A stretch of 64,000 nucleotides of DNA from Escherichia coli (GTDB lineage Bacteria; Pseudomonadota; Gammaproteobacteria; Enterobacterales; Enterobacteriaceae). Positions 10,788 through 45,495 of the stretch are shown here, piece after piece (within the stretch, counting starts at the first letter, position 1; each line of letters opens with the position of its first letter). Both the position numbers and the translations under genes were made by a program. The notes under the pieces were generated by a model. It was given only the letters and a program-made list of their open reading frames with translations, was not told where the DNA came from and made no database searches. Location of the stretch: assembly GCA_022969815.1 (NCBI GenBank), contig GCA_022969815.1_4535.1. One strand, given 5' to 3'.

Positions 10788-10793
10788 GTGTGT

Positions 10794-10851: not shown

Positions 10852-10888
10852 ATTGTAGGGATTTTTGAGATAGTTTGCTTGTAAGATT

Positions 10889-10897: not shown

Positions 10898-10903
10898 CTT
10901 TCC

Positions 10904-11006
10904 TGAAGATGCTACGCAGCCTACAACCTACCTGAATGCTCGTCTAACGAGGTTAACTCTAAAAGATGAGTGTTGGTGTAGCTAAAGAGAAAAGGCTCTC
11001 TACGGA
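10904..11006 (+). ncRNA. candidate small RNA, about 100 nt
   Basis: bounded by the extended -10 at 10889-10897 and a terminator; 10-bp inner stem CCTACAACCT/AGGTTGTAGG. Confidence 0.3.
10971..11006. terminator. bidirectional intrinsic terminator
   Basis: AAAA-GGCTC-loop-GAGCC-TTTTT; ends the leftward NADAR operon and the candidate rightward small RNA. Confidence 0.55.
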
Positions 11007-11090
11007 GGTTGTAGGAGCCTTTTTCTGTGGCACAAAGTTGACGTATTCTTTTTAAAAACGAATTTTTTCAAAATATCACGAATATCGCCT

Positions 11091-23346: not shown

Positions 23347-23598
23347 ATGGCGGGTTATCATTTAATAGATATTGAGAAACAACCTTACGGCAGTATTGAA
23401 AAGATTCAGGAAGAAGTTTATGAACTTTTTGATGCTGTCGAACAGGATTGCAGACTTATGCAATTGGTCGAATTGTCAGATATTGTGGGTGCTGTTGAAG
23501 GTGTGCTGGAGACACAGTTTCCTGGGATGACGTTGCAAGATTTGATCACTATGTCAGACCTTACCAAACGTGCTTTCCGCACAGGAGGAAGATCATGA
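23347..23598 (+). CDS. hypothetical protein, 83 aa
   Basis: ATG 23347 with GAGGAG SD chosen over the track start 23287. Confidence 0.5.
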   Translation: MAGYHLIDIEKQPYGSIEKIQEEVYELFDAVEQDCRLMQLVELSDIVGAVEGVLETQFPGMTLQDLITMSDLTKRAFRTGGRS

Positions 23599-24158
23599 AT
23601 GGGGAAGTCATTGCCAATGCGATCCACTATTACGGACGCTATGCACAAATGATTCAAGTACCTTACCTGGTAGATGCAGATATTCTTGCATACACACTAC
23701 CAGAAGGTAAAGAGGATCGCCCTTTGGGGCATCCTAATGGGAGATTCTATGTTGCCAGCGCAGAACAATCCTTCCTCCAGATGGAGAAAGATGGTTTTGA
23801 GTTTGTAGCAGAACACCCTTATATGGCATTGACCCCATGTTACCGCACAGAAGATGTTCTTGATGAAAGTCATTTTAACATCTTTCTGAAACTGGAATTG
23901 ATTGAGTTTTATCCGAAACATGGACCTATAGCATATGCAAAGGATATGTGTAATTTTCTTTGGACCTATTATAGTCTGGAAACACGTATAGTAAAAACTG
24001 AAATAGGGTTTGACGTGGAAGACAAATATGGGTTAGAATTAGGGTCATTCGGAATGAGGAATTCTCCGAAAGGTCATCCGTACATGTATGCCACAGGCAT
24101 AGCAGAACCACGAGCATCTATTGCTCTTAACCACAGAGAGGGGTTTATTTATGAATAA
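23595..24158 (+). CDS. hypothetical protein with class II aminoacyl-tRNA synthetase-like motifs, 187 aa
   Basis: PCYRTEDVLDESH...LELIEFY resembles class II motif 2; GLELGSFGMR resembles motif 3; tentative. Confidence 0.45.
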   Translation: MNGEVIANAIHYYGRYAQMIQVPYLVDADILAYTLPEGKEDRPLGHPNGRFYVASAEQSFLQMEKDGFEFVAEHPYMALTPCYRTEDVLDESHFNIFLKLELIEFYPKHGPIAYAKDMCNFLWTYYSLETRIVKTEIGFDVEDKYGLELGSFGMRNSPKGHPYMYATGIAEPRASIALNHREGFIYE

Positions 24159-26502: not shown

Positions 26503-27159
26503 ATGACAATCAAACACATTTCTTTCGATGTATGGAACACACTGATCACAGCAAACCCAAATTACGCGGATATGCGAGCTTGGACTATCGCAAAATACGG
26601 AGATATTTCGGAAGTAGAAGCAAGAGCAGCTTACAAGAAGATCAAAAAGGAACTGGATAATGCGGCACTTCAGGGAACAGCCGAGTGTGCAGCATATGCC
26701 TGGGAAAGACTTGGTTACGAACTTGGGATAACACCTTTGAAGTCTGCAAAGCTTCGTTTCGAGTGTGAACAATGGTTCCTTAAGTTTCCACCTCATGTAG
26801 CTGTGGATCTACCGATGCACTTGCTATATCTTTCGGGGCGTTATGATTTGAGCATTAAGAGCAATACCAACTTCATATCAGGAGATATCTTGCGACGTGC
26901 CTGTAAGTTTGAAAGTTGGAATTGTTTTGAGTTCACACATTTCTCGGATGAAGCTTTACTTTGTAAACCAGATCCGCGATTCTTTGCTCGCACGATCACT
27001 TATTCTCCAATCCCTCTGGTAGGGCAGGAAGTGTTGCACGTAGGTGATAGTGAAGAATATGATGGAAAATGTGTTGACGTAGGATTTAACTTCTGTCATA
27101 TTAAGAACCCTAACGACTTGTTAGATAAACTTGCTAAAGGAGAACTTGTTAATGCGTAA
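26503..27159 (+). CDS. HAD-superfamily hydrolase, 218 aa
   Basis: motif I FDVWNTL (haloacid-dehalogenase-like), motif III KPDP, motif IV GDSEEYD. Confidence 0.65.
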   Translation: MTIKHISFDVWNTLITANPNYADMRAWTIAKYGDISEVEARAAYKKIKKELDNAALQGTAECAAYAWERLGYELGITPLKSAKLRFECEQWFLKFPPHVAVDLPMHLLYLSGRYDLSIKSNTNFISGDILRRACKFESWNCFEFTHFSDEALLCKPDPRFFARTITYSPIPLVGQEVLHVGDSEEYDGKCVDVGFNFCHIKNPNDLLDKLAKGELVNA

Positions 27160-27979
27160 TCAAACTCAAATCTTTGCTCACAAATTTGATAATCTGGAAA
27201 CTGCTCGCTTTGATATTCGTGATTATTCCAAACTGAAGTTTGGTAGCAACCAGGCGGCACGCCGTATGGGGAAAACATTAGCAGTCTCTTTCTATGACTT
27301 GGTAGTCAAGAATATGCCGGAAGAAGAGTTTGTGGTGATCCCTTCACCTTACAATCATGTGCATAACGCAGCAACGATGATGACCAATCAGTTCATCAAC
27401 TTCCTGAACCTGTTGCTGTTGAATCACAAGGGTAGCCGTGCAGTAGAGTTGGATACGATCCACCGCAAGGTGAGTTACATTAACGATTATGGTTTCCTGG
27501 ACAAAGCAAGCCGTAAGAAACTGATCGACGGGGACACATTTTATTGCAACAAAGATTTTTGGGGCAACAAGAAGTTGATCTTCATTGATGATGTGAACAT
27601 CACGGGGACTCATGAAGACAAACTCATTGAGATCCTGGATGAAAACAAAGTTACAAACGATGTTTACTTCCTGTATTTTGCCAAGTACACTGGTAATCAA
27701 GCAGACACAGAAGCTAAACTGAACTTCAATCATATTAACACGACAGATGCTTTTGTTAAGATGATCAATGAAGAACAGGATGCACAATGTTTGGTTCGTC
27801 CTATCAAGTATCTGATGGGACAAGCACCGGAAGAGTTTAAAATCATTCTCTCCCGTCTGCCACACCGTTATGTAGAAGCACTGTTCTTTGGGTGTCTTGG
27901 GGAAGGTTATGACAAGATCGAGAAGTATTCTGAAAACTTCGTCTTCCTGAACCGTTACTTTAACCAACATATCCTGTAA
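27152..27979 (+). CDS. phosphoribosyltransferase-like protein, 275 aa
   Basis: PRPP-binding-loop-like LIFIDDVNITGT; ATG 27152 with AAAGGAG SD chosen. Confidence 0.5.
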   Translation: MRNQTQIFAHKFDNLETARFDIRDYSKLKFGSNQAARRMGKTLAVSFYDLVVKNMPEEEFVVIPSPYNHVHNAATMMTNQFINFLNLLLLNHKGSRAVELDTIHRKVSYINDYGFLDKASRKKLIDGDTFYCNKDFWGNKKLIFIDDVNITGTHEDKLIEILDENKVTNDVYFLYFAKYTGNQADTEAKLNFNHINTTDAFVKMINEEQDAQCLVRPIKYLMGQAPEEFKIILSRLPHRYVEALFFGCLGEGYDKIEKYSENFVFLNRYFNQHIL

Positions 27980-27988
27980 GGAGGCAAA

Positions 27989-28462
27989 ATGTTGAAGGTT
28001 GTTACTGGGAATCTGATCGATGCAGCCAAGAATGGGGAAGTGAACGTTATAGCCCACTGTTGTAACTGTATGTGTAATATGGGTGCAGGAATTGCTCCGC
28101 AAATTAAACGAGCATTTCCTTATGCATATGCAGCAGATCTGGGCACAATGGCAGGTGATCAAAGTAAGTTAGGTTATTTTAGTTTAGGGGTGCCAGACGA
28201 ACAATCAGATCCTTTGGTATATAATCTATACGGGCAGTATCGTTATGGATACAATGCTAAAGGTCGTCAGTTGGACTATGATGCCCTCTACGATGCACTA
28301 ATAGCTATGGCTAATGATTTGCTTCTCCGTGACCAAAAATGTAAGATCGGTTTACCTATGATTGGAGCGGGACACGCTGGAGGTAATTGGGCTATCATCC
28401 AAGTGATGATTGAAGAAACTTTAGTAAAAACAGGTCACGATGTGACTATCTATAAACTTTAA
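27989..28462 (+). CDS. macro-domain protein, 157 aa
   Basis: VVTGNLIDA...VNVIAHCCNC...GAGIA and later GAGHAGG match the macro-domain (ADP-ribose binding/hydrolase) pattern. Confidence 0.7.
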   Translation: MLKVVTGNLIDAAKNGEVNVIAHCCNCMCNMGAGIAPQIKRAFPYAYAADLGTMAGDQSKLGYFSLGVPDEQSDPLVYNLYGQYRYGYNAKGRQLDYDALYDALIAMANDLLLRDQKCKIGLPMIGAGHAGGNWAIIQVMIEETLVKTGHDVTIYKL

Positions 28463-28778: not shown

Positions 28779-29753
28779 ATGCAACTTGGTTTCCCCATTA
28801 TTGATGTAGTGGTTCTGGTAGGTATCTTAGTACTGTCTATTGCGGTGGATTTTTTCGGGCACCGTGAGAACAAGGAGATCTCATTCAAATCAGCAGTCGG
28901 TTGGTCAATCTTTTGGATTGGGGTGTCACTGGCGTACTACGGTTTTGTATACTTCCAACATGGCGCTGACTTCGCCAACCTGTTCCTAAGTGGGTATGTG
29001 TTAGAGAAGTCGCTTTCGGTAGATAACTTAGTTGTGTTTGTGGCAGTGTTCACCAGTTTCGGTATTAAGAGCACGCACTTACAACATAAGATTCTGCTGT
29101 GGGGTATTGCAGGTGCGATTGTCTTCCGAGGTGTGTTTGTAGCAGCAGGTACTTACTTGTTAAGTTTGGGCTGGTATGTTAACATTATCTTCGGTGCTGT
29201 TATCCTGTTCTGTGCATTCAAAATGGTAATGGCTGGCGGGGATGATGAAGAAGTTGATTACTCTAAACATTGGGCTACCCGCGTCGTTCGTAAACTGTTC
29301 CCAGTATCGGATCAGATGGATGGTGAGAAGTTCTTCACGATTAAGAATGGTGTTCGTGTAGCAACTCCGGCTCTGGTTTGTGTGTTCGTGATGGAAATGG
29401 TAGATGTGATCTTTGCAGTAGACTCGGTTCCGGCTGTAATTGCAGTGACACAAGAACCTCTGCTGGTGTTCTCTTCGATGCTCTGTGCAATCTTAGGCTT
29501 ACGTGCTCTGTTCTTTGTTCTTAGTGTGGCCCTGAAGTATCTGGTTCACCTGGAGAAAGCAGTTATCGCGGTACTGGTGTTTGTTGGTGTGAAACTGATG
29601 TATCACCCGTTTGCAGAAACGCTGCACGCAAAAGTGAGCTTCCTGCCAGCGCATATTGACCCGACGATCAGCATGTATATCGTGCTTGGTACTCTGACCC
29701 TGGGCGTGATTGCAAGTTTCATCTTCCCTGAAAAAGAAGAAGCTACCGCTTAA
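28779..29753 (+). CDS. terC: TerC-family integral membrane protein, 324 aa
   Basis: multiple TM helices and the TerC signature EKSLSVDNL. Confidence 0.8.
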   Translation: MQLGFPIIDVVVLVGILVLSIAVDFFGHRENKEISFKSAVGWSIFWIGVSLAYYGFVYFQHGADFANLFLSGYVLEKSLSVDNLVVFVAVFTSFGIKSTHLQHKILLWGIAGAIVFRGVFVAAGTYLLSLGWYVNIIFGAVILFCAFKMVMAGGDDEEVDYSKHWATRVVRKLFPVSDQMDGEKFFTIKNGVRVATPALVCVFVMEMVDVIFAVDSVPAVIAVTQEPLLVFSSMLCAILGLRALFFVLSVALKYLVHLEKAVIAVLVFVGVKLMYHPFAETLHAKVSFLPAHIDPTISMYIVLGTLTLGVIASFIFPEKEEATA

Positions 29754-31273: not shown

Positions 31274-31864
31274 ATGAATACCGAGAGAGATTTAAAACTC
31301 TTGTGGTGGGAAGTGATGCAGGAGATCAAGGAAGATTTCCCTGTTTACTACAACATGCTACGTGAAGCTGGATATACGGCTTGCGTTAGGAACAAAGTGA
31401 ATAACTCTTTCGGTTGGTGCAACTACCGAGAAAAGATTGTTGTTGTGAATTGGTACTTGCATAAAAACTCCACAAGGGATATGATAGTGGACACAATGAA
31501 GCATGAAATTGCTCATGCTATTGATGGTTGTATGGGTAAGTTCAGTCGTCATGGACCACACTGGCAAAAACTGGCAGCAGAGTTGGGAGCCAATCCTAAA
31601 GCTACTTCCAAAGAACCGTTCAATCATGAATACAAATATGTTCTTGTTTTGGTAGACAGATTTGCCACAAGATGTGTTAGAGGGTATAATCGTAAACCTA
31701 ACCGTATGACTCCAGGGAAACAACCACATATTTGGTTGAAGAGTGATAAAGAGGGGACAGAAGGAAAAATATGGTTGTATAAATGGGAAGATTGGGTTAA
31801 AGTAGCTAAAGAATATGGTGTTTCACCTTACACAAGAGAAATAGAAGAGGAGAATGAAGAATGA
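31274..31864 (+). CDS. SprT-like zinc metallopeptidase, 196 aa
   Basis: HExxH motif MKHEIAHAIDG with a downstream H and SprT-like N-terminal region. Confidence 0.6.
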   Translation: MNTERDLKLLWWEVMQEIKEDFPVYYNMLREAGYTACVRNKVNNSFGWCNYREKIVVVNWYLHKNSTRDMIVDTMKHEIAHAIDGCMGKFSRHGPHWQKLAAELGANPKATSKEPFNHEYKYVLVLVDRFATRCVRGYNRKPNRMTPGKQPHIWLKSDKEGTEGKIWLYKWEDWVKVAKEYGVSPYTREIEEENEE

Positions 31865-32973
31865 CAAGTCCATTTTTGAAAGCGGCAACTGGTGGTCAAA
31901 AGAAATCTGAAACGAGTGTACTGACTGCTACTACAGACGCAAGCAAGTCCGTGTTCGCTCCGAGTGTCCTGGATGCAAGTCCGGTGTATGCTCCAGCAGC
32001 GCCAAAAGCTGTGCCTACCCTGCCAACAATGTCTCGTAAAGAGATTGAAGAAGTAGGTGCAGAAGCAGGTTTAACTCTCCGTTCTCTGAACGCTGAAGTG
32101 CTGAAGCACCAACGTAGCAATCAAGGTGACGAAATGAGTCAACGCCTTACCGCCTTGATTAAACAAGCCAAACAGCTTGATCCTGCCTCCATTAAGCAGA
32201 GTAAAGGTGTAGGTAAACTCATCAAGAAACTGATGGGGATGAAAGAAGATCTCTTCGGCGAGTTTGATAACGTGAACAACCGTATCGAAGAACTCGTTAA
32301 GAATCTTCAAATGGATATCCGTAAAGAAGAAGACTCTCTGGTGTACCTGGAGAAGCTGCACCAGGCGATCGGGCAGTACGCCGCAAGTCTGAATCGTGAT
32401 ATGGAATTACTCACAGCAGCTTATGAGCAAGAACTGGCTACTTTTGAAGCCACACCAGAAGATGATGTAGAAGCCCGTCAGAGCGTCCGTGACACGCTTG
32501 ATCTTCTGGAGATACGTATTGCTGACTTAAAGGCATTACGCTTGCTGTGCGTGCAAATGGGGCCGCGTGTACTGGGTATGCAGAAAGTATCTGCCAGCCT
32601 CATGCGTTCTGCTCGTAATATTGTGAACAATGTGATTCCTGCTTACTCTGCCAACTTCTCAATGTATATTGAAAGTCTGCGCCAGAAGAAAGCAGCAGAA
32701 ACACAGAACAACGTTCTGGACGAGTTCAACCTGGCAATCAAACTGGGTAGCGATCTTGCCACACAGAATCAGATCGAAGCAGCAGCACTGGCTAACCGCC
32801 AAGTGTTGGATATTGAAACCCTGCGTCACGATCAGGAAAACTTGGTTAAGATGTTGGAAGAAACTAACCGCATCAATACGGAAGCCCGTGCTGCCCGTGT
32901 TGATTACATCAATGAAGTTCAATCTCTCGAAGATGGGATGGTTGATGCTGTTAAGAAGGGGCTTGGTAAATGA
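31861..32973 (+). CDS. coiled-coil protein, possibly TelA-like, 370 aa
   Basis: long helical, charged repeats; size and composition are compatible with TelA-type proteins; family assignment unverified. Confidence 0.55.
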   Translation: MTSPFLKAATGGQKKSETSVLTATTDASKSVFAPSVLDASPVYAPAAPKAVPTLPTMSRKEIEEVGAEAGLTLRSLNAEVLKHQRSNQGDEMSQRLTALIKQAKQLDPASIKQSKGVGKLIKKLMGMKEDLFGEFDNVNNRIEELVKNLQMDIRKEEDSLVYLEKLHQAIGQYAASLNRDMELLTAAYEQELATFEATPEDDVEARQSVRDTLDLLEIRIADLKALRLLCVQMGPRVLGMQKVSASLMRSARNIVNNVIPAYSANFSMYIESLRQKKAAETQNNVLDEFNLAIKLGSDLATQNQIEAAALANRQVLDIETLRHDQENLVKMLEETNRINTEARAARVDYINEVQSLEDGMVDAVKKGLGK

Positions 32974-34365: not shown

Positions 34366-35166
34366 ATGTCCAATAAAATTAGCCTGAAGAAACGCCAAGA
34401 CACCCTGACCATTTCACTGAAGAAAAAGAAAATCGTGAACGAAGATCAAAAGATCGTTCTGCGTGTTGCAAGTGCACTGGATATCTCCGGTAGCATGTCC
34501 AGCCTGTATCGTAACGGTACTGTAAGTGAGTTTGTTGGTAAGTTGCTTCCGTTTGGTATGCTGTTCGATGATAACGCGCAGATCGATATGTGGGCTTTCA
34601 ACAATAGCTCTCGTGAAATCACTCCAGCAACTGCTGATGTGTATGATGATTACGTTGGTAAATGCATTAATGGTCGTGTAACAGTCCAGGGTGGCACAAG
34701 CTATGCACCTGTTATGCAGGATATTTACGATTCCTACTTCGGTAGCACCACTAAATATGAAACTGTAGAAACTCCTGTAACCAAAGAAGTTCCTAAGAAA
34801 GGTTTCTTCAACCGTTTACTGGGTAAAACTGAAACTGTAGAAGCTGTTGTAGAAAAAACTGTAGCCGTTGCTGTGCCTGGTGTAGACGTTACTCCGGCAG
34901 TTGTGTTCTTCCAGACAGATGGTGAGAACGATGATCCGAGCCGTGTACTCTCCGTACTGGAAAAGAACAAGGGTAAACCTATCTACTGGTTCATGGTGGG
35001 TGTTGGTAGTGCTCGTTTCTCTTTCCTGAAAGATTTGGCTGAAGCTTACGACAACGTAGCATTCATTGGTCTGAACGATCTTTCCTTGACAGACGAGCAG
35101 CTTTACGATAAACTCTTGTCTGAAGAGTTCGGTGAGTGGGTCGAAAAGGTTGGTGCTAAGAAATGA
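34366..35166 (+). CDS. vWA-domain protein (TerY-like), 266 aa
   Basis: MIDAS motifs DISGSM, GGTSY, QTDGEND; N-terminus ISLKK...ISLKK like the TerD-type protein downstream. Confidence 0.7.
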   Translation: MSNKISLKKRQDTLTISLKKKKIVNEDQKIVLRVASALDISGSMSSLYRNGTVSEFVGKLLPFGMLFDDNAQIDMWAFNNSSREITPATADVYDDYVGKCINGRVTVQGGTSYAPVMQDIYDSYFGSTTKYETVETPVTKEVPKKGFFNRLLGKTETVEAVVEKTVAVAVPGVDVTPAVVFFQTDGENDDPSRVLSVLEKNKGKPIYWFMVGVGSARFSFLKDLAEAYDNVAFIGLNDLSLTDEQLYDKLLSEEFGEWVEKVGAKK

Positions 35167-35405
35167 TCGACACGCTGATCTCTCAAACGGTGTTACAAGT
35201 GATGCGCGAGAGAGAAGCTTTCATCATGAAGGGTCTTAAAGATTACTTTGGGACTCTTTCTTTGGAAGAACTCAAGCTACGCGTTGAAATCCATCAGTAT
35301 CCTTTTTATGAAGAATGGATTGACAAAGCAAATAAAGCTGTTATAATGCGTATCAACAAACCAGAAATCACGACAGGAGGACAAGATGTTAAATTTCGCC
35401 ATTAA
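35163..35405 (+). CDS. hypothetical protein, 80 aa
   Basis: ATGA overlap. Confidence 0.5.
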   Translation: MIDTLISQTVLQVMREREAFIMKGLKDYFGTLSLEELKLRVEIHQYPFYEEWIDKANKAVIMRINKPEITTGGQDVKFRH

Positions 35406-35682: not shown

Positions 35683-36285
35683 ATGAGCGATAAAATTTCC
35701 CTGAAAAAAGGTTCCACCGACAAGATTTCCCTGAAGAAAGTTGCTCCGGCACTGAAAGAACTGCGTCTGGAGTTCTCCTGGAAATCAAACTCTAAACTGG
35801 ATCTGGATGTAAGCGCACTGGTATGCCGACACAACGCTTCTGGCAACCCTGAAATGCTGTCTGCACGTCATCTGGTTTGTTATGCTAACAAGTTTGATCC
35901 AGAACGTTCTGTATTCGCGGGTGATGATGTTCGTGACGGTACTGGTCAAATGGAACAGATCGATGTAACCTTGGCTAAGATCTCCGATAAAGCCGAAGAG
36001 ATTGCTTTTGTCCTGACTATTGATGATGAAACGGGTCAGAAACGTCTGGGTCACGCTACTGAAGGTATGCTGAAGATTTTCGATTCCGAACGTAACGTAG
36101 AGATCCTGGACTTCGACTTCCTGGCTCCTGAAGTAGCTGGTAACACGATCTGCCACGTAGCTTCCTTGGTTCGTGAAGACGGCGAATGGAAACTGAAAGC
36201 TTACGGTGTTGGTAAAGCAGGTATGGATATCTGTGATGTGGTTATGGCCTTCGGTGGTCAGAAAGAATGGTATGATTGCCCGTAA
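35683..36285 (+). CDS. terD: TerD-family protein, 200 aa
   Basis: ISLKKG...ISLKK, LDLDVSALV, FAGDDVRDGTGQMEQIDV, EIAFVLTIDDE, EDGEWKLKAYGVG match the TerD/TerZ/TerE domain pattern. Confidence 0.8.
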   Translation: MSDKISLKKGSTDKISLKKVAPALKELRLEFSWKSNSKLDLDVSALVCRHNASGNPEMLSARHLVCYANKFDPERSVFAGDDVRDGTGQMEQIDVTLAKISDKAEEIAFVLTIDDETGQKRLGHATEGMLKIFDSERNVEILDFDFLAPEVAGNTICHVASLVREDGEWKLKAYGVGKAGMDICDVVMAFGGQKEWYDCP

Positions 36286-36322: not shown

Positions 36323-36351
36323 TTGCAAAAACGCCTCTCATGTGTTATACT
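36323..36351 (+). promoter_or_regulatory. sigma70-type promoter for the hydrolase gene
   Basis: -35 TTGCAA 36323-36328, 17-nt spacer, -10 TATACT 36346-36351; hairpin GGGGGAGAAATCCCCC 36306-36321 just upstream. Confidence 0.6.
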
Positions 36352-36382
36352 GGTAGTTCATTCACCCAAAAGGAGGCAAAAT

Positions 36383-36904
36383 TTGCTGATAAAAAACTTT
36401 GTAACAGTTGCGTTACTATCCTTAACTGCTTTTACATTTACACCTGTCACGGCAACCGCCGAAGCTGCAAACGTAAAGACTGCTAAAGTAGTTCACAAAT
36501 GTGCAAAGCAAGATACTAAAGAAAATCTCTTAGCTTGTGCAATTTACGCTGAAAGTCGTAATCAGGGTAAACGTGGAATGTATGCTGTAGGTAACGTAGT
36601 ATTGAACAGGAAAGGTGATGATTACTTCCCTGACAATATTAAAGATATTCTCTTCCAACGGGGACAATTCTCTTACAGGAAGAAGTTTAACGTTACTGAA
36701 GCAGAGCGATGGAAAGAAGCTAAAGCTATCGCAAAACGACTTATATACCTGGATACAAACTTCCCTACACTTAGAGAAGCCCAGGACATGACAAAAGGTG
36801 CGACATTTTTTAAGAAAGTAAAAACCCGTGCACACTGGACAAAAGATATGGTCTTAGTGTATCGTTATAAAGAACATCAGTTCTACTCACCGACAAGGAG
36901 CTAA
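36383..36904 (+). CDS. SleB-like cell-wall hydrolase with signal peptide (probable endolysin), 173 aa
   Basis: hydrolase motifs LACAIYAESRNQGKRGMYAVGNVVLNRKG...FP...QRGQFS; TTG start 36383 six nt after AGGAGG; cleavable signal-like N-terminus VTVALLSLTAFTFTPVTATAEA. Confidence 0.7.
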   Translation: MLIKNFVTVALLSLTAFTFTPVTATAEAANVKTAKVVHKCAKQDTKENLLACAIYAESRNQGKRGMYAVGNVVLNRKGDDYFPDNIKDILFQRGQFSYRKKFNVTEAERWKEAKAIAKRLIYLDTNFPTLREAQDMTKGATFFKKVKTRAHWTKDMVLVYRYKEHQFYSPTRS

Positions 36905-36905: not shown

Positions 36906-37190
36906 ATGCGAGAAGATAATACTGTTGTTGTTGCGAGCTATCTCGTTATCGGTTTAACCGAAGAAGATGTGTACTACATTCGTAAAGGTTTGGAAGCTTA
37001 CGCTACCCTCTTCATGGAAGACGAAAGCGATGTTGATAAATATTCCGTGGAGTTGATCAACGACAGTATTTATCCTTGCATAGCTCTTAAAGTAGATGCT
37101 GTTCTGTGGGAGCGTTTTGCAAGAAGTCACGATGCTATTGAATCTTCAATGGTTATGACACAAAACAACATTTTGGGGGTGATTCACTAA
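36906..37190 (+). CDS. hypothetical protein, 94 aa
   Basis: AAGGAG SD. Confidence 0.5.
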   Translation: MREDNTVVVASYLVIGLTEEDVYYIRKGLEAYATLFMEDESDVDKYSVELINDSIYPCIALKVDAVLWERFARSHDAIESSMVMTQNNILGVIH

Positions 37191-37420
37191 TGGCAGATAT
37201 CATTGAGGTAAACTTCCGTACTCGGAAGAAAGTAGAGAAATATACAATATTGAAAAGTGTTTGCGTTGTTTGTTTCAATAGTGTAATCTACGATTCAAGA
37301 AAGGGCGAAGACGGTAATGAGCCGTATATCGAACTGTCAAAGGGCAACGGTAGTTGCATTTGTAAAGCTTGTGCTGTTCAGATTAAGGGGGTTGTTGATG
37401 AAAACGAATGGGATAAATAA
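37190..37420 (+). CDS. CxxC zinc-ribbon protein, 76 aa
   Basis: CVVC...CICKAC. Confidence 0.5.
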   Translation: MADIIEVNFRTRKKVEKYTILKSVCVVCFNSVIYDSRKGEDGNEPYIELSKGNGSCICKACAVQIKGVVDENEWDK

Positions 37421-37592
37421 TACAGGGGAACTTTCTCTTGAGAACGTAACAAACGACAAACTGATTAAAATGCGAGATGTAGCTTTGGATCATCTCCAAG
37501 ACTCCTTCAAGGAATATATGGAAGCACGGGATCGTGTGCTTGAGATTCGTCAAGCAATGGTTAAACGCGGAATGGTAGTGGATTCTAAGTAA
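37398..37592 (+). CDS. hypothetical protein, 64 aa
   Basis: internal ATG 37398 with AAGGGGG SD chosen; 23-nt overlap with the upstream gene. Confidence 0.4.
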   Translation: MKTNGINNTGELSLENVTNDKLIKMRDVALDHLQDSFKEYMEARDRVLEIRQAMVKRGMVVDSK

Positions 37593-37601: not shown

Positions 37602-38165
37602 ATGATTTATTATATTACCCCGTATCTGACTGGAGATATCGGCAAAGCAATTAACGATGCTATTGCCGTTCTTCATGAAGATAGTTGGGTGTGTTTACGT
37701 GATACAGATACCATGTTCTTACTGCCAGACCAACCTTCCATGTTGGAAGATTTGGTAGCAACCAACCCACCGTTCGATGTAATCGGTGCATCCTGTAACC
37801 GTTTAGGCAGTAGTTATCAACTCCTCGGCGGAAAGATTGATGATGATCCTGACATTCTGAACCATATTTCTCATGCCAAAGTTGCTCGTGATTACTATGG
37901 TGATGAAATTGAGGAAGTCCCACAAGGCACTCCCTTGGCAGGTTTCTTCCTATTGTTCAGGAAATCATTATGGAAGGAGATCCCTTTTGAAGAACGTAGC
38001 ATCCAGTTCGATATAATCTTCTCAAACACTTTACATGAACGAGGGAAAAGGTTAGGATTGATGCGTGGGATGTATCTCTTCCACATTTACCGTTTAGGTC
38101 AAAAAGATCCTCAACGGGCAATATCACACCTCATGCATTGTCATGATCACCGGAAAACTATTTAG
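37602..38165 (+). CDS. hypothetical protein, 187 aa (possible transferase)
   Basis: sits at the head of the glycosyltransferase cluster; no firm motif. Confidence 0.5.
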   Translation: MIYYITPYLTGDIGKAINDAIAVLHEDSWVCLRDTDTMFLLPDQPSMLEDLVATNPPFDVIGASCNRLGSSYQLLGGKIDDDPDILNHISHAKVARDYYGDEIEEVPQGTPLAGFFLLFRKSLWKEIPFEERSIQFDIIFSNTLHERGKRLGLMRGMYLFHIYRLGQKDPQRAISHLMHCHDHRKTI

Positions 38166-38173
38166 GGGGAAAG

Positions 38174-38857
38174 ATGGAAAATGTTAAAATTGGGGTTGGC
38201 GTTATCACTGTAGGCGTTCGTCCACTTAAAGATTACATGGTTGCACCTGGTGTAGACTTCAAAGTGTTTCACGATCCCGATCGTAAAGGTGTAGCTTATG
38301 CTCGCAACCAATTGATGAAACAGTTCTACGATGAAGGTTTTGACTACTGGTTTATTTTCGACGATGATTGCTATCCAGTTAAACGTGGTTGGGAAGAATA
38401 CTTCGTTAACCAGGCTGTCGAGAATGGTTGGGACTTCTTCGGTATGCCAGAATACTTCAAAGATACTGTGATCGGTTGTTCTGGAGAAGTAGTCTTCTGG
38501 GAATTGGCTATGTGTCAGTTTGCAATGTATTCTCGTGCAATTGTTGAGACGATGGGTTATTTCCGCCCGTATACGCACGGATATGGTTTTGAAGATGCGG
38601 AATGGACTAACCGTCTGAAAGCTTCAGGTTTGAATAAAGGACTCCAGGGCGTACCTTGCCCGATGCGCATTATGGCGTACATTCACCCCGACGATGTTTT
38701 CGGAGACAACCCTTTACCTTTTGCGAATCTGACGAAAGAAGAGAAAGAAGCAGCAATCGGGATCAACTGGGAAGAATACAAACTATCTTTGGAGGATATC
38801 AATAATGGCAAAACATACATCTCTTTTGAAGAGGCTGAAGGATATGGCGTTAAATAA
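38174..38857 (+). CDS. GT-A (family 2-like) glycosyltransferase, 227 aa
   Basis: GVGVITVGVRP...KGVAYARNQLM...YWFIFDDDCYP (ARN motif and DxD). Confidence 0.65.
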   Translation: MENVKIGVGVITVGVRPLKDYMVAPGVDFKVFHDPDRKGVAYARNQLMKQFYDEGFDYWFIFDDDCYPVKRGWEEYFVNQAVENGWDFFGMPEYFKDTVIGCSGEVVFWELAMCQFAMYSRAIVETMGYFRPYTHGYGFEDAEWTNRLKASGLNKGLQGVPCPMRIMAYIHPDDVFGDNPLPFANLTKEEKEAAIGINWEEYKLSLEDINNGKTYISFEEAEGYGVK

Positions 38858-39791
38858 GAAACCAACCCTACTGTGCGATAACAAATTCAACAGTGGTTGT
38901 GATTATCATCGCATTGTTATGCCATTTTCTCACATAGAGATCAAGCCACGTACTGATGTACTGGTCTTTAACCGCATCTTCTCGAAAGGTTCTGATGAAG
39001 TAGCCAAACTTAAGCGTCAAGGTGTTAAGATTGTTGTAGATTTGGATGATTTCTATCAGTTGAATCCAGAGCACTACCTTGCGCATCTGTACGCGCCAAA
39101 CACCCGCACCATTGTGGAAATGGTTAAATTGGCAGATGCGGTCATCGTGACAACAGAATACCTGGCATATAAAATTCGTCACTTAAACTCTAATGTTGTT
39201 GTGATCCGAAATGCTCTACCGTTCGATGATGACCAGTTCACTCTCTCGAATGATCGTACTTCGGGTACGCCTATTATCTGGGCTGGAGGTGCAAGTCATG
39301 AGCCTGATTTACGTTTGCTTTCAAATACTTTTGATGATAGTCTGTTGTCTATCGCAGGGTATGAAGCGAGCAGCACAGTGACAGGGCAAGAGTGGGTTAA
39401 GATTCGCCGTAGTTTGCCTAATGCGCAGTATAAACCTGCTGTACATTCTTTGGATGAGTATATGTCGGCATACGATGGTCACGCTATGGCGGTAGCCCCG
39501 TTAGTAGATAATGACTTCAACCATTGCAAGAGCAACCTGAAAGTATTAGAAGCTGGTGCTAAAGGCATTCCAATCGTTTGTTCTAAGGTATTACCTTACT
39601 ACAACCCGATCGATGCCCGTGCAGTAACCTTCGCAGATAGCAAGGCAGAGTGGCACTATGAAGTTGTAAAACTACTTCGTAATCCAAACTACCGTGAAGA
39701 TCGTGGACTGTTCTTGGCTGAACATGTTCGTACTCATTACAACTTGAAGGATGCAAACGAATTGCGTCGTCAAGTGATCGAAAGTCTATAG
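38844..39791 (+). CDS. GT-B-type glycosyltransferase, 315 aa (paralog 1)
   Basis: C-terminal K.NLK.LEAGAKG.P.VCS nucleotide-sugar-binding-like motif; ATG 38844 chosen by length match to the paralog (alternative ATG 38805). Confidence 0.6.
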   Translation: MALNKKPTLLCDNKFNSGCDYHRIVMPFSHIEIKPRTDVLVFNRIFSKGSDEVAKLKRQGVKIVVDLDDFYQLNPEHYLAHLYAPNTRTIVEMVKLADAVIVTTEYLAYKIRHLNSNVVVIRNALPFDDDQFTLSNDRTSGTPIIWAGGASHEPDLRLLSNTFDDSLLSIAGYEASSTVTGQEWVKIRRSLPNAQYKPAVHSLDEYMSAYDGHAMAVAPLVDNDFNHCKSNLKVLEAGAKGIPIVCSKVLPYYNPIDARAVTFADSKAEWHYEVVKLLRNPNYREDRGLFLAEHVRTHYNLKDANELRRQVIESL

Positions 39792-39797
39792 GTGTCT

Positions 39798-40742
39798 ATG
39801 GGACAAATTATTCTTGACAATCGTGCTGGAAAAGAATATAGTGTCTGCGATTATCACCGAGTAATGCTGCCTTACACAAGGCAGTTCTCGGCTCAACCGT
39901 CACAGAACGTATATGTCTTTAACGGTGTCCCTACAAAAGGGAAACAAGGTTTCATAGCCCTTAAGAGCATGGGTTTTAAGATGGTAATGGATTTGGATGA
40001 CTCCTTAAACATTCCTCAAGGACACATGCTGGAAGACATTTTTGATGCAGGTATTCGAGAAGACTTGCAATGGTTTCTTGAACGTAGCGATCTTGTGACG
40101 ACAACAACACCTGCTCTCCAGGTGGAACTGTCCCAGTACAATCCTAACGTACATATTATTCCAAATGGCTTACCGTTTGATGAGGATCAGTTCACGTTAA
40201 CTCGTGATCGCTATTCCAAATCGCCGATAGTATGGGCTGGAAGTGAAACACATAAACAAGATTTAGCTCTACTGCCGAATTTTGGAAGGGATTTAACAAT
40301 CTGCGGATTCCGTAGAGATAGTGAAGTCTTAAGTAGTAAGCAATGGACTGACATACGTGAAAAAGTGGCTCCAAGCTGCAATTATGAGGCTGTTAGACCA
40401 TATGAGAGCTATATGGAATCTTATGATGGTCATCAAATAATGCTTGCGCCTTTGACCGATAACCTGTTTAATAACGCCAAAAGTAACCTTAAGATTCTGG
40501 AGGCTGGTGCCAAGGGTCTGCCTTTGGTCTGTTCTCCTCGTGAGAATTACTTCACAGAAGAGTTTAAGGATTTACTGTTCTTTGCAGAATCAAGAAGTGA
40601 ATGGGAAGATATTGTTAATTACCTGATCCAAGAACCTGATGTGGGGATCGAGAAGGGATTGGCTTTAGCTAAATATGTTCGTAAGCATTATCACATTGAT
40701 GTGCTGAATGAACGCCGTAGATTATTATTTGAGGAGCTATAA
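39798..40742 (+). CDS. GT-B-type glycosyltransferase, 314 aa (paralog 2)
   Basis: about 35-40% identical by eye to 38844..39791 (CDYHR, PNGLPFDEDQFTL, LEAGAKGLPLVCS); ATG 39798 (track start is GTG 39792). Confidence 0.6.
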   Translation: MGQIILDNRAGKEYSVCDYHRVMLPYTRQFSAQPSQNVYVFNGVPTKGKQGFIALKSMGFKMVMDLDDSLNIPQGHMLEDIFDAGIREDLQWFLERSDLVTTTTPALQVELSQYNPNVHIIPNGLPFDEDQFTLTRDRYSKSPIVWAGSETHKQDLALLPNFGRDLTICGFRRDSEVLSSKQWTDIREKVAPSCNYEAVRPYESYMESYDGHQIMLAPLTDNLFNNAKSNLKILEAGAKGLPLVCSPRENYFTEEFKDLLFFAESRSEWEDIVNYLIQEPDVGIEKGLALAKYVRKHYHIDVLNERRRLLFEEL

Positions 40743-41020
40743 TGCTGAATACTTTTGATTTTGAGTACACTACGAAAAGTGGTTTTAATGTTGTGGTGGA
40801 AGTTGATTATTACTACGAAGAACCTGATCCACACTCACGGGAAAGTGATTGGGATTACCACGGTGGGTTACTGATCGACGGTATCCGTTTCTATGCGGGT
40901 CTGGAACAGCTTGATGCGGAAGATATTAACGTGACCGTAACAGAAATCGCATACCAATTCAAAAAACATATGGAGGCATTAGAAGCCGCGTACATGATGG
41001 AAACTAACGAATCATTTTAA
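40742..41020 (+). CDS. hypothetical protein, 92 aa
   Basis: TAATG overlap. Confidence 0.5.
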   Translation: MLNTFDFEYTTKSGFNVVVEVDYYYEEPDPHSRESDWDYHGGLLIDGIRFYAGLEQLDAEDINVTVTEIAYQFKKHMEALEAAYMMETNESF

Positions 41021-41032: not shown

Positions 41033-42814
41033 GTGACACACATTATAACGAAATATGGATTTGATGTTGATCTTAGCAGGGAAGGGCACACTGGCTGTCC
41101 ACGCTGCATGAAAAATGGCAAGGATCGCTCTCGTAATAACCTGATGGTTTATGGATTGGATTCTAACGGTGAGCATAAAGGAGCTAAATGCTTTGCGTGT
41201 GAGTACACAATCCCCAGCGTTGAATGGTTAAGAGAGAATGGTGAAGTTTTAGAAGAAGAGGAGGATATTGTGGGTTCGGAATTTAATAAAGAGATTCATC
41301 GTAAGATTGTAGAAGAAACAGGTACTAACCCACGAGGCTACCGTGGGATCAAGGAAGAATATTCTAAATTCTACGGTGTTCGTTACCAGTATAAACAAGA
41401 AGAATCTAATCTTGTTGTGGAACATACTTTGTATCCAACAACTATCGGTAAAGAACTGGTAGGTTTTAAGCGTCGTATCCATCCTAAAGACTTCTCCAAG
41501 CCCATTGGTCAAGTAGGTAAAGATGTAGATTTGTTTGGACAATTTCGTTTCCTTGAGCGTTCCCATACCGTAATCATTACTGGTGGTGAACATGATGCCT
41601 TGGCAGCATATCAAATGTTGGCAGAAGGTCTTGACAGGAAATATGAATTACCAGCAGTAGTTAGTGGCACAACTGGTGAAACCAGTATGTACAAACAGGT
41701 ACAGGCACAGTACCCTTTCTTTGAGAAGTTCAAGAAGATCATCGTCTGCATGGATAATGATAAAGCAGGTAAGGAAGCTTTTGAGAACATTGTAAAAGTG
41801 TTGCCTCGTAATAAAGTTTACCTGATGAAGATGGAACTGAAAGATGCTAATGAATACCTGTTGCAAGATAAAGCAAAAGACTTTGTGAAGGCTTATTGGG
41901 GTGCAAAACTCTATACCCCAGCAGGTGTTTATGCTTCAAACGAACTTTATGAAGCTGCAATGGATTGCTTGGATGCACAAGTGATCACTCTCCCTCCGTT
42001 CATGCGTACTGCTGCGAACATGTTGGGTGGTGGTCTGGTAGAAGAAGAGATCACAGTTATTCTGGCTAAAACGAGTATCGGTAAGACGTTGATGGTGAAT
42101 GAGATCACCAAACACATTATCGTAGCTCATCCAGAACATGTGTTGGGTATTCTGTCCCTGGAAGCAACGTATAAGAAATACTCACGTAACCTTCTTTCTT
42201 CGTTCCTGCATATTCCTTTGCATCGTAAGACTAAGGAAGAAAAGGCTGCGATCCTGGAAGAGAACAAGGAAGCTATTAATAACTTCTACGTTCGTGAAGA
42301 TGGTTCTCCTCGCTTCTTTGTCTGTGATGACCGTGGTGCAGACATTGATTCAATCAAGGAGAAGGTGCTGGAGATGATTATCTACTTTGGCATTACCATC
42401 TTGGTAATTGACCCATACTCGGATCTGTTGTCGGGGATGAGTGTTCAGGAACAAGAAGAATTGGCAACGTGGTTGAAGCGCATCATGAAAGAATATGGCA
42501 TTACGATCATCGTGATCTCTCACGTTAAGAAAGCTGCGAACAATGGTAATGAGCACTTAACCGAAGATGATGCAATGGGTAGTAGTTTCTTGGCAAAAGG
42601 TGCAGGTATTACACTGGCACTGGAACGAGATAAAGCCGCAGAAGACCCTGTTGAGCGCAACACAACTCATTGTTATATCTTGAAAAACCGTGAGTTCTCA
42701 GAAACTGGTCCTGCTGGACAATTCTATTACGATATTAAAACTGCCACACTGCACGACAAAGCACAGTATTTTGCTAATCCTGATAATGCAGGTGGTGCAG
42801 AAGGCGCATATTGA
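41033..42814 (+). CDS. bifunctional primase-helicase (T7 gp4-like), 593 aa
   Basis: N-terminal zinc ribbon CPRC...CFAC, TOPRIM CMDNDKAGKE, helicase Walker A AKTSIGKT; GTG start with AGGAGAGG SD. Confidence 0.85.
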   Translation: MTHIITKYGFDVDLSREGHTGCPRCMKNGKDRSRNNLMVYGLDSNGEHKGAKCFACEYTIPSVEWLRENGEVLEEEEDIVGSEFNKEIHRKIVEETGTNPRGYRGIKEEYSKFYGVRYQYKQEESNLVVEHTLYPTTIGKELVGFKRRIHPKDFSKPIGQVGKDVDLFGQFRFLERSHTVIITGGEHDALAAYQMLAEGLDRKYELPAVVSGTTGETSMYKQVQAQYPFFEKFKKIIVCMDNDKAGKEAFENIVKVLPRNKVYLMKMELKDANEYLLQDKAKDFVKAYWGAKLYTPAGVYASNELYEAAMDCLDAQVITLPPFMRTAANMLGGGLVEEEITVILAKTSIGKTLMVNEITKHIIVAHPEHVLGILSLEATYKKYSRNLLSSFLHIPLHRKTKEEKAAILEENKEAINNFYVREDGSPRFFVCDDRGADIDSIKEKVLEMIIYFGITILVIDPYSDLLSGMSVQEQEELATWLKRIMKEYGITIIVISHVKKAANNGNEHLTEDDAMGSSFLAKGAGITLALERDKAAEDPVERNTTHCYILKNREFSETGPAGQFYYDIKTATLHDKAQYFANPDNAGGAEGAY

Positions 42815-42820
42815 TTCAGA

Positions 42821-42836
42821 AGGGGCGCAAGCCCCT
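42821..42836 (+). terminator. hairpin after the primase-helicase gene
   Basis: AGGGGC-GCAA-GCCCCT with a modest T tract. Confidence 0.45.
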
Positions 42837-42837
42837 C

Positions 42838-42867
42838 TTGACTTTTGATTGAGGAATGTGATACCCT
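42838..42867 (+). promoter_or_regulatory. candidate promoter TTGACTTTTGAT...TACCCT
   Basis: -35 TTGACT 42838-42843, 18-nt spacer, TACCCT 42862-42867; mirrors the element at 17953. Confidence 0.35.
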
Positions 42868-42897
42868 TCAGGTTGAGTTACATAATATGGAGGACTA

Positions 42898-45495
42898 ATG
42901 AGTAAGTTTACATGGGATATTGAAGCAACCGCATTACTGAACAATGACACAATTGATTACCTGGCAAGCCCTTATCGATTGAAAGACACTTTTGGTATGC
43001 ATTGTATTTGTCTGGAAAACCACGAAACAGGAGAGATCATTGCTTTTCACGATGGTCCTAAGTACATTTTCGATGGTCGTCCTTATGAAGAGTCTGACGG
43101 TAAGTACACTTATGTACTGAAGGAGTATGTGGCACAAGAATACACACACTTTCCTCTGGCAGATTTTCCAGATTTTGTCAACCATACAGGCAAGTTCGCA
43201 GATAAGCCTGAATACCTCGTAGAAATGGCTGTAGCCCATAACGGCATCAACTATGACCACTTGGCAGTTAAGCTTTACTACGGGCTGAATTACAGCGTTA
43301 AATACAACACTTGGGGTGATTCAAAAGTTAAGATTATTGATACCTTAATCCTTAGTAAAGTATTGAACCCTGATCGCAAGGTTGATGGTAAACCTGGACA
43401 CAACTTGAATGCCCTTTCTAAAAAAGCTGGCGGGGATGTTAAGATCGATTTCCGTAAAGAGATTCCAGAAGGAGAGCGATTCAAGACGTTCGCCGCAGAT
43501 ATGTTGTACTACTGTATCTACGACAACAAGGCAACTACAGCAGTATATTATTACCTCATGGAAGAATGGGGTGATTATAAGAAGTGGCAAGAGCCGTTCG
43601 ACTTGGAGCAACGTATTGCGGATATCATCACCCGTCAAGAACACCGTGGCTTTAAGTTCAACATGCAACAAGCTGAACAGAACCTGGAATTCTTGGACAA
43701 AGAAATGGAACGTCTACGTTTGTTGGTAGAGCCTATTCTTCCACCTAAACCAGCGACTAAAGGTTATCTGAAAGATTTTATTCCACCGAAACTTCAAATC
43801 AAGAAGAACGGTGAGCCAACAAATCATATCATCAGGTTTGCGGAGAAACATGGCGGTAGCCTTGAAGAACGTGAAGGTGATTGGTGGCTGCTTGTTTTAG
43901 ATAAAGAGTTTAAGTTACCGATCTCAAGTGAAGAACCTATTTGTGAACCTACCATTCCGTCTACACTGAATGATACGACACACATTAAAAACTGGCTTGT
44001 AGGTTTGGGTTGGGTTCCGTCTGAATATAAAGACAAAGACTTGACGCTTAAATCTGGTTCGAAGATCAAGAAAGATCCTGACGACTTAGAGAAAGGTATT
44101 CTGTCTTATGTCAAACAAACTCTGGAAAGCAACTTCTGTAATGATCGTTGCGAACACTTACAAGCTGATGCTGAAACATTAGAGCTTAGAATCCGTGAAC
44201 GTCTGGCTAAAGGGAAAGGTCGTGGTCTTAAAGTGCTGACCAACCCATGCTTCACGAAGGGGCAGGAGAAAGAGATTTGTCCTAATCTTGAAGCACTGGG
44301 CGAGAAGTTCCCGTATGCCACGCAGATTGTGCAGTACCTGACGTACAAACATCGTCGAAACTCTATTTTGGGCGGTGGTGCAGATTGGGAAGACGATGAG
44401 GAAGATCAAGAATACGATAAAGGCTTCTTAGCAGCAGTTCGTGCCGATGGTCGTATATCGACTCCAGCGGCTACGTGTGACGCTGCAACATCTCGTATGA
44501 AGCATCGCTCTGTTGCGAACGTTCCTCGCGTTACATCGTTGTTTGGGTACGAAATGCGTAACTTGTTTGGGGTAGAAACACCGCGTTACTTCCAGATCGG
44601 TTATGACTTTGACTCCTTGGAAGCAAAGATTGAGTCGCATTATTGTTGGCGCTACGAACCGGAGCCTCATGAATATTGTAACGCTCTCTTGTTGGAGAAG
44701 CCTAACGATGTTCATACCATGATGGCAAGACGTATCACAGAAACTATTGGACGTAAGTTTGAACGTAGTCCAGCTAAATCTGTTAAGTACGGGATTACAT
44801 ATGGAGCACAGGCAGACAAGGTTGCTAAGACAATTGGTAGTGATAAGTACACAGGACAACTGGTGTTTGATGCATTCTGGGAAGCGGCTTTCCCGTTAGC
44901 ACAACTGAAAGAGAAGTTGAATGCTTTCTGGGTTAACACTGGCAAGCAGTATGTTCTCGGTATCGATGGACGTAAAGTCCCAACACGATCTGCACATGCA
45001 ATCTTAAACTCACTGTTCCAAAGTGGCGGGGTTATCTGTGCTAAACGTGCAATGGTGATTTATGACGATATGATCGAAGAGGAAGGTTTAGCTGTTGACT
45101 TCTTCGTTGACGACTGGAAGAATAAAGACTTCGTTCAGCAAATGATCGCTTACCACGATGAAGCGCAGCTTGAAGTATCTCGTAACTTGGTGGAATTTAA
45201 ATGGTTCTCCAAAGAATCTTTAGGTTGGGTTAAAGTGGATGACGAGAAAGAGCAGAAGAAAATAGATGCGGAATGTCTTGCAAAAGCTAACGAATGGAAG
45301 CATAATAAAGAGAAAGAGACAGGGCAGATTTGGGCTAACGTTCACGAATCACCTAAAGGTGGTTGGTTTACCGCTTACAGTCGTGCCGGAGAACTTGCTT
45401 CTCTTGCTGTTATCAAAGCTGGGGAATATTACAAACTAAATGTTCAGCTTACTGCTGGATACGATGTTGGTAGTTCCTGGGCGAGCTGTCACTGA
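42898..45495 (+). CDS. family A DNA polymerase with 3'-5' exonuclease domain, 865 aa
   Basis: Exo I DIEAT; motif A DFDSLEAKI; motif B RRITETIGRKFERSPAKSVKYGITYG; motif C HDE. Confidence 0.9.
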   Translation: MSKFTWDIEATALLNNDTIDYLASPYRLKDTFGMHCICLENHETGEIIAFHDGPKYIFDGRPYEESDGKYTYVLKEYVAQEYTHFPLADFPDFVNHTGKFADKPEYLVEMAVAHNGINYDHLAVKLYYGLNYSVKYNTWGDSKVKIIDTLILSKVLNPDRKVDGKPGHNLNALSKKAGGDVKIDFRKEIPEGERFKTFAADMLYYCIYDNKATTAVYYYLMEEWGDYKKWQEPFDLEQRIADIITRQEHRGFKFNMQQAEQNLEFLDKEMERLRLLVEPILPPKPATKGYLKDFIPPKLQIKKNGEPTNHIIRFAEKHGGSLEEREGDWWLLVLDKEFKLPISSEEPICEPTIPSTLNDTTHIKNWLVGLGWVPSEYKDKDLTLKSGSKIKKDPDDLEKGILSYVKQTLESNFCNDRCEHLQADAETLELRIRERLAKGKGRGLKVLTNPCFTKGQEKEICPNLEALGEKFPYATQIVQYLTYKHRRNSILGGGADWEDDEEDQEYDKGFLAAVRADGRISTPAATCDAATSRMKHRSVANVPRVTSLFGYEMRNLFGVETPRYFQIGYDFDSLEAKIESHYCWRYEPEPHEYCNALLLEKPNDVHTMMARRITETIGRKFERSPAKSVKYGITYGAQADKVAKTIGSDKYTGQLVFDAFWEAAFPLAQLKEKLNAFWVNTGKQYVLGIDGRKVPTRSAHAILNSLFQSGGVICAKRAMVIYDDMIEEEGLAVDFFVDDWKNKDFVQQMIAYHDEAQLEVSRNLVEFKWFSKESLGWVKVDDEKEQKKIDAECLAKANEWKHNKEKETGQIWANVHESPKGGWFTAYSRAGELASLAVIKAGEYYKLNVQLTAGYDVGSSWASCH

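Follow-up and report, generated by a model that had tools for sequence, protein, structure and literature searches.

The stretch of DNA examined here, 64,000 nucleotides of Escherichia coli assembly GCA_022969815.1 (contig GCA_022969815.1_4535.1, hereafter the window), carries between positions 37602 and 40742 a compact cluster of four genes on the + strand, designated p1 to p4, the predicted products of which are glycosyltransferases (GTs). The first gene, p1 (37602-38165), encodes a minimal GT-A-fold enzyme of 187 residues, and p2 (38174-38857) a second GT-A-fold enzyme of 227 residues. These are followed by two GT4-like enzymes of the GT-B fold, namely p3, which starts at 38805 or 38844 and ends at 39791 (328 or 315 residues), and p4, which starts at 39792 or at an ATG at 39798 and ends at 40742 (316 or 314 residues). 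An initial annotation of the sequence had placed here a GT-A enzyme preceded by a possible fourth transferase and followed by a tandem pair of GT-B enzymes, all within a replication region; the four open reading frames (ORFs) were indeed recovered at those positions and on that strand, packed as a cluster, with alternative starts for p3 and p4. The start of p3 is ambiguous in that the ATG at 38805 has a GGAGG sequence 9 nt upstream, whereas the ATG at 38844 gives the family-typical product of 315 residues and is the start annotated in phage phAPEC8.

The spacing of the genes is operon-like: p1 and p2 are separated by 8 nt, p2 and p3 overlap, p3 and p4 are 0 to 6 nt apart, and p4 shares 1 nt with the gene that follows. 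The ribosome-binding site of p1 is AGGGG. The next gene (40742-41020, + strand) encodes a conserved protein of 92 residues with no assigned function (PHROG 4240, E = 1e-30), which is present in 133 records of the phage group described below, immediately follows the final GT gene in every region inspected, and has a weak homologue in phage PVP-SE1; it is treated here as a context gene rather than as a demonstrated member of the cluster. Genes for a primase-helicase (41033-42814) and DNA polymerase A (42898-45495) lie directly downstream, as expected from the replication location that was initially proposed. When the + strand was scanned from 33 kb, only weak terminator-like sites with three G-C pairs were found before a hairpin at 42821-42836, which follows closely on the primase-helicase gene and is the first stronger site of this type. 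Since no site with more than three G-C pairs precedes position 42821, the cluster is probably co-transcribed with the primase-helicase gene. Comparison with phAPEC8 gave ratios of nonsynonymous to synonymous substitution rates of 0.04-0.08 for all four genes, denoting strong purifying selection and indicating that the ORFs have not arisen by chance.

Family assignment by hidden Markov models, which the initial annotation had suggested as a check, placed all four products in PHROG families labelled as glycosyltransferases, with matches that extend from end to end (p1, E = 4e-103, families 14179 and 26101; p2, E = 4e-75, family 2456; p3, E = 1e-138, family 7162; p4, E = 2e-135). In Pfam, p4 alone passed the gathering score (Glyco_trans_1_2, 29.8 against 25 bits); p2 fell below the cut-offs for Glycos_transf_2 (19.7 against 23.3 bits), TAGT (18.5 against 27.5 bits) and Glyco_transf_7C (15.8 against 23 bits), p1 had no match at E ≤ 1, and none of the four matched an NCBIfam model. 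The p1 protein is nonetheless a GT-A-fold enzyme, albeit one outside the curated sequence families: it has a single Rossmann-like alpha/beta/alpha nucleotide-sugar-binding fold, and its DxD motif, D34-T-D36 within 'RDTDTMF', is nearly invariant among 22 homologues, such that its suspected role as a fourth transferase holds. In p2, the ARN and DxD motifs remarked upon at the outset are both conserved among homologues, with R44 and N45 of A43-R44-N45 invariant, D64 and D65 of D63-D64-D65 likewise invariant and D63 present in at least 90% of homologues; E140 and D141 of Y-G-F-E140-D141, which corresponds to the acidic 'ED' motif conserved in inverting GT-A enzymes, are also invariant. No profile similarity was detected between p1 and p2, meaning that the two GT-A enzymes are not detectably related. 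The weak matches of p2 to PHROG 842 (T-even hydroxymethylcytosine glucosyltransferase) and to TAGT were not taken to indicate membership of those families, as they span only the generic N-terminal nucleotide-binding and DxD region and are no better than the match to GT2.

The tandem duplication of the GT-B gene was similarly upheld, p3 and p4 being true paralogues with 41% identity over 303 residues (E = 4e-77). Each protein consists of a pair of Rossmann domains, the C-terminal one of which binds the nucleotide sugar, and both retain every invariant residue of a 54-member family alignment, comprising the DLDD motif, H76, N123, H152, D155, KSNLK..E235, N304 and R307. In the alignment to MshA, the second glutamate of the EX7E motif of retaining GT4 enzymes corresponded to the invariant E235, whereas the position of the first is occupied by asparagine and there is a five-residue insertion, 'KSNLK'; the chemistry of p3 and p4 may be either retaining or inverting. 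Sequence searches of the PDB with single sequences and with profiles of the three families returned nothing useful (best values E ~0.01-0.2 for MshA and TreT, and E = 0.08 for b4GalT7). At the structural level, the neighbours of p1 include the mimivirus proteins R655 and R699, and the top neighbours of p4 are 6kih, BshA and PimA. No membrane segment is predicted in any of the four proteins (maxima of 0.64-1.26 over 19-residue Kyte-Doolittle windows), indicating that they are soluble, and all are acidic, with isoelectric points (pI) of 4.6-6.6. Acidity was at one stage regarded as an argument against a DNA acceptor; this was dropped, as the DNA arabinosyltransferases of phage RB69, used as a control, are equally acidic (pI 5.2-6.3). 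In fold, p1 to p4 are all genuine glycosyltransferases, and their motifs are intact.

The cluster region is 97% identical to that of Escherichia phages phiWec188 and phiWec190 and of 'Pseudomonas' phage PsgM04F, members of the phAPEC8/phi92 group of the Stephanstirmvirinae, and approximately 76% identical to Phapecoctavirus records. Homologues of p1 to p4 in phiWec188 and PsgM04F are 97-99% identical, and most of the window aligns to PsgM04F at 88-98% identity, the exceptions being a few short gaps and the last 11 kb, which lies outside the stretches compared. The four-gene cluster occurs in about 130 Stephanstirmvirinae records, and as a sequence feature it is already known, having been annotated in the records of phi92 and phAPEC8. 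Indeed, gp163-gp166 of phi92 and gp071-gp074 of phAPEC8 are orthologous genes in the same order and in the same slot upstream of the primase-helicase gene, with amino acid identities of 68-82%, and differ in nothing substantive from those described here. The phi92 record carries fold notes for each orthologue: 'glycosyl-transferase fold' for gp166 (p1), 'ppGalNAc-T2 fold' for gp165 (p2), 'GT-B fold' for gp164 (p3) and 'TreT fold' for gp163 (p4). RefSeq records of the group annotate the cluster as 'glycosyltransferase (x4)'; no paper assigning a function to it was found. Separately, near-identical genomes have been deposited as phages of Pseudomonas (PsgM04F), Campylobacter (A150, A110a, C3 and others) and Acinetobacter (ABPW7), host labels that are probably wrong or the result of contamination during enrichment.

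Not all members of the subfamily have the same number of transferases. Its E. coli phages possess all four, p1 and p2 with one GT-B enzyme are found in phage 05F01 and metagenomic locus L004, and p1 with one GT-B enzyme in Klebsiella phage phi1_175008 and locus L019. The single GT-B of the Klebsiella relatives is 61% identical to p3 and 40% identical to p4, and metagenomic homologues, which share 29.6-45% identity with p3, are nearer to p3 than to p4 in four cases of five, with a tie for the most distant (L008). Since the single GT-B and most of the more distant homologues are nearer to p3, this gene is the ancestral copy, with p4 a diverged duplicate. Two GT-B copies are found in Phapecoctavirus and in Justusliebigvirus alike, which indicates that the duplication is older than the split between these genera. 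In PVP-SE1, from the sister subfamily Vequintavirinae, one small gene rather than four transferases lies between homologues of the flanking genes; the cluster may therefore be an inserted accessory module, albeit tentatively so because the flanking matches are weak (E = 0.001 and 1e-7).

More distant homologues were found in a variety of other phages. The contexts that were inspected were contigs with phage hallmark genes, and the great majority of the matches had no functional name at source; none belonged to an NCBIfam family. The p1 family alone comprises 1007 representatives at E ≤ 0.001, and about one-third of the top matches are fusions in which the p1 domain is C-terminal. Pfam scans of ten multi-domain members identified TOD1/MUCI70 glycosyltransferase-like domains, GT2 and, in one case, Methyltransf_24 as partners, and no DNA-binding, nucleic-acid or nucleotide-metabolism domain was present in these ten. 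At least six independent small-phage lineages have homologues of the GT-B enzymes beside or within a few genes of terminase, portal or capsid genes. These homologues directly precede the terminase gene at loci L008, L009 and L021 and in Streptomyces phage KimJongPhill, lie between terminase and portal genes at L010/L011/L020, and are about 6 kb upstream at L022. They are accompanied by a p2-like GT-A enzyme at L009, L010/L020, L021 and, weakly, L022; at L021 the GT-A/GT-B pair is followed by one small ORF and then the small terminase gene. In KimJongPhill, genes 4-6 encode an epimerase, a methyltransferase and the GT-B homologue (profile E = 6e-44), two genes before the terminase gene. Gene product 41 of Cellulophaga phage phi18:1, with TOD1-like and p1-like domains, is encoded between head-morphogenesis and capsid genes and beside a methyltransferase gene, and at locus L016 p1-like and p2-like genes occur with two GT2 genes and an FkbM-type methyltransferase gene a few kilobases from a portal gene. 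These combinatorial modules, associated with late operons and sometimes equipped with a methyltransferase, match descriptions of virus-encoded glycan synthesis on structural proteins, and because the hosts are so diverse they are hard to reconcile with a host-specific envelope glycan as the target.

A potential source of the sugar donor was found in the genome of PsgM04F, where RmlB, RmlA, RmlC and RmlD are encoded consecutively (Pfam E values from 2e-73 to 9e-80) and constitute a complete pathway to dTDP-L-rhamnose, as has been noted previously for this phage group (Olsen et al., PMC7552041). Searches with RmlC and with p1 at a threshold of at least 60% identity each returned 132 phage records, 106 of them from Escherichia phages in either case. 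These equal counts indicate that the cluster and the rml genes are co-inherited, to judge from the deposited genomes, despite lying approximately 80 kb apart; no rml gene is located within the window itself. It is inferred that p1 to p4 use dTDP-rhamnose.

Considered together, these observations lead us to favour, tentatively and short of regarding it as probable, a phage-autonomous assembly line that builds an oligosaccharide, probably containing rhamnose, on proteins of the virion. In this scheme the four soluble glycosyltransferases would act in series in the cytoplasm to form a short oligosaccharide, drawing on UDP-sugars of the host and on dTDP-L-rhamnose made by the phage's own RmlABCD enzymes, which are encoded elsewhere in the genomes of the closest relatives. 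The acceptor, which is the most conjectural element, would be one or more structural proteins of the phage, to which the sugars would be added in the cytoplasm, either ahead of assembly or in the course of it. Variation in transferase number across the subfamily is what a chain-building line would lead one to expect, possession of RmlABCD would render the glycan independent of host serotype, and the cluster contains no gene for a flippase, a polymerase or a Gtr-type partner. Several observations nevertheless weigh against a virion acceptor. The cluster belongs to the replication block rather than to the late structural genes, and the literature that was read mentions no glycoprotein in virions of the phi92/phAPEC8 type. 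The closest structural neighbours of p1 and p4 are generic GT4 and GT2 enzymes, which do not identify the acceptor, and the presence of rml genes in this exact genome is deduced from relatives that are 93-97% identical. The gene neighbourhoods in smaller phages amount to guilt by association, and DNA-modification genes may also adjoin terminase genes. Additionally, the capsid, decoration and tube proteins of the relative have no obvious Ser/Thr-rich C-terminal tails, which is uninformative in itself.

Virion glycosylation by the virus itself has precedents. Chloroviruses and mimivirus glycosylate their capsids or fibrils with their own sugar-nucleotide pathways and GT-A and GT-B enzymes. Freeman and colleagues reportedly described, in 2023, glycosylation of actinobacteriophage virions via glycosyltransferase/methyltransferase cassettes. 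The cluster described here resembles these systems in that soluble GT-A and GT-B enzymes are virus-encoded together with nucleotide-sugar synthesis, in some instances with sugar methyltransferases; it differs from them in its location in the replication block, in the lack of a methyltransferase and in the Gram-negative host. If the virion-protein interpretation is correct, no earlier virion glycosylation system would, to our knowledge, have been described for enterobacterial phages. Members of the phAPEC8/phi92 group infect a broad range of hosts and are often isolated for therapy and biocontrol, and a phage-made, rhamnose-containing glycan on the virion would affect antibody recognition, clearance and stability. 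The cluster and the rml operon form a defined module that could be deleted in phages able to grow on E. coli K-12, and the identity of the acceptor should be cheap to settle.

The principal rival explanation is that the enzymes remodel the host envelope, attaching sugars such as rhamnose to lipid-linked intermediates of the lipopolysaccharide core, the O-antigen or the enterobacterial common antigen at the inner membrane face, perhaps with the phage Rml enzymes diverting dTDP-4-keto-6-deoxyglucose from synthesis of the common antigen. The infected cell would thereby mask the phage's own receptors, resulting in superinfection exclusion or in progeny that do not adhere to debris, and the cluster would represent a receptor-masking strategy in a virulent phage. 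This is a serious contender, albeit on balance an unlikely one. Homologous modules occur in Cellulophaga, Streptomyces and diverse metagenomic phages, whose hosts share no envelope glycan, and the cluster encodes no flippase, ligase, polymerase or Gtr-type membrane partner for p1 to p4, which are themselves devoid of membrane segments. The GtrABC seroconversion systems of temperate phages are alike in being a phage-encoded change to a glycan, but consist of membrane proteins that act with undecaprenyl-phosphate sugars at the periplasmic face, in contrast to the soluble enzymes of a virulent phage encountered here. The authors of the extended BASEL collection have also expressed the opinion that fully modifying abundant surface glycans in the course of a lytic infection would probably be ineffective (PMC11990801). 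A soluble target, such as a non-structural protein of host or phage, or a small molecule, for instance a nucleoside-like metabolite that the Ter-type module encoded upstream may make, would accord with four soluble enzymes. The Ter-type genes are directly upstream on the same strand (26.5-36.3 kb), with no terminator-like site of more than three G-C pairs from 33 kb to 42821, and the order of Ter genes followed by GT genes is retained in the Klebsiella relatives. Ter-type modules with phosphoribosyltransferase (PRTase), HAD, TerD and TelA components were reportedly predicted by Anantharaman, Iyer and Aravind in 2012 to make a metabolite of this kind. However, smaller phages have GT modules in the absence of Ter genes, a signalling or takeover modification would hardly call for as many as four transferases, and neither a fusion nor a neighbour specifically ties the GT genes to those of the PRTase or HAD proteins. 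A soluble target is regarded as improbable.

DNA base glycosylation, which was offered in the initial annotation as a candidate role alongside modification of host or virion glycans, fared worst. The proposal would be that the transferases add sugars to a hydroxylated base of phage DNA once replicated and so permit evasion of nucleases, in the manner of the T4 alpha- and beta-glucosyltransferases or the arabinosyltransferases of RB69 and DLP3. There is some basis for this: the cluster adjoins primase-helicase and DNA polymerase genes, as do the RB69 genes, and several GT-B enzymes with a phage sugar-nucleotide pathway constitute the layout of the proven RB69, DLP3 and RL38J1 systems, the GT-B enzymes of which share their top structural neighbours (6kih, BshA and PimA) with p4 (PMC13326640). 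A DNA-modification role was moreover proposed for the rml genes by Olsen et al. (PMC7552041), and relatives carry a divergent ThyX-like protein, a MazG-like pyrophosphatase and an NT5C-like nucleotidase. The RB69, DLP3 and RL38J1 systems, which produce arabinosyl- or hexosyl-5-hydroxycytosine, depend, however, on a 5-hydroxy-dCMP synthase homologous to ThyA (PMC13326640), and no ThyA-family hydroxymethylase, 5-hydroxycytosine synthase or TET/JBP enzyme is annotated in bases 1-137,000 of the 151,205 of PsgM04F, the thymidylate synthase of which is of the Thy1/ThyX type, with the motif xHRxxSxxxxSxR. Thus, while the systems are alike in having several acidic GT-B enzymes with generic GT4 structural neighbours and a sugar-nucleotide pathway near replication genes, the phages with the present cluster lack the ThyA-homologous hydroxylase, as far as the relative that was checked is concerned, have two extra GT-A enzymes and are related to restriction-sensitive phages. 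Neither is there a relationship in sequence: the GT-B, p1 and p2 profiles gave no match in the RB69 region, tblastn returned no Straboviridae record, and the ten p1-family fusions that were scanned combine with other GT and methyltransferase domains only. Vequintavirinae and related phages, among them the phi92-like phages Bas60-62, were described as 'exceptionally susceptible' to restriction-modification systems 'despite a putative dTDP glycosylation machinery' (Maffei et al., PMC8594841), and no nucleoside analysis came to light in the literature; the presence of the cluster and of rml genes in this phage group was ascertained in two BASEL records. Druantia III and ARMADA II likewise act against Stephanstirmvirinae, whereas hypermodified T-even phages evade both (PMC13463889; bioRxiv 10.64898/2026.05.13.724758). 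A role in DNA hypermodification is consequently regarded as very unlikely. A variant in which the cluster and RmlABCD place a rhamnose-containing glycan at a few scattered or sequence-restricted sites in phage DNA, with the hydroxyl group supplied by an enzyme class new to DNA modification, such as the divergent ThyX-like protein, and with a non-restriction defence as the target of the countermeasure, seems more far-fetched still.

The protein annotated as thymidylate synthase in this phage group (PsgM04F 102241-103846; locus L003 15241-16846) is a divergent ThyX-like protein of 331 residues with a Pfam Thy1 score of 37 bits and the motif THRLFSRNAASSR. Its gene adjoins that of the NT5C-like 5'-nucleotidase, and the gene for the MazG-like pyrophosphatase is about 5 kb away.

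The Ter-type module of the window is encoded entirely on the + strand and comprises genes for a HAD-like hydrolase (26503-27159), a ComF-like PRTase_3 protein (27131-27979), a Macro domain protein (27989-28462), TerC (28779-29753), an SprT-like protein (31274-31864), TelA (31861-32973), a vWA-TerF-like protein (34366-35166) and TerD (35683-36285). Between TerD and the GT genes, in the early or replication region, lies a gene for a SleB-type cell-wall hydrolase (36323-36904; Pfam Hydrolase_2, E = 5e-17), which is called 'endolysin' in relatives; the Rz-like spanin that is annotated in the relative is encoded at a considerable distance from it. Immediately before p1, the ORF at 37317-37592 overlaps the preceding ORF (37190-37420) by 104 nt; in view of this overlap, of the 65-residue product annotated in relatives, the start of which is equivalent to 37398, and of a PHROG match confined to residues 41-89, the true start is probably at 37398. 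On the other side of the cluster, PsgM04F (OR584014) has an 'endonuclease' gene of approximately 0.9 kb (10562-11455) between the primase-helicase and DNA polymerase genes that is absent at the corresponding position in the window (42816-42886), a difference that looks like a presence/absence polymorphism of a homing endonuclease. Further upstream, the ORFs at 23595-24158 (187 residues) and 24121-25653 (510 residues) are named 'histidyl tRNA synthetase' and 'ribonucleotide reductase' in PsgM04F; neither had a Pfam or NCBIfam match, and the names look unreliable. Promoter evidence was not retained, since counts of sigma-70-type TTGACA-N16-TATAAT sequences were overall equal to those expected from shuffled sequence. 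The one perfect match in the window is of doubtful significance, at least one such match having been obtained in 6 of 100 shuffles; it is located at 35320-35347, within an ORF of 80 residues (35163-35405) just upstream of TerD, and has an extended -10 TG element.

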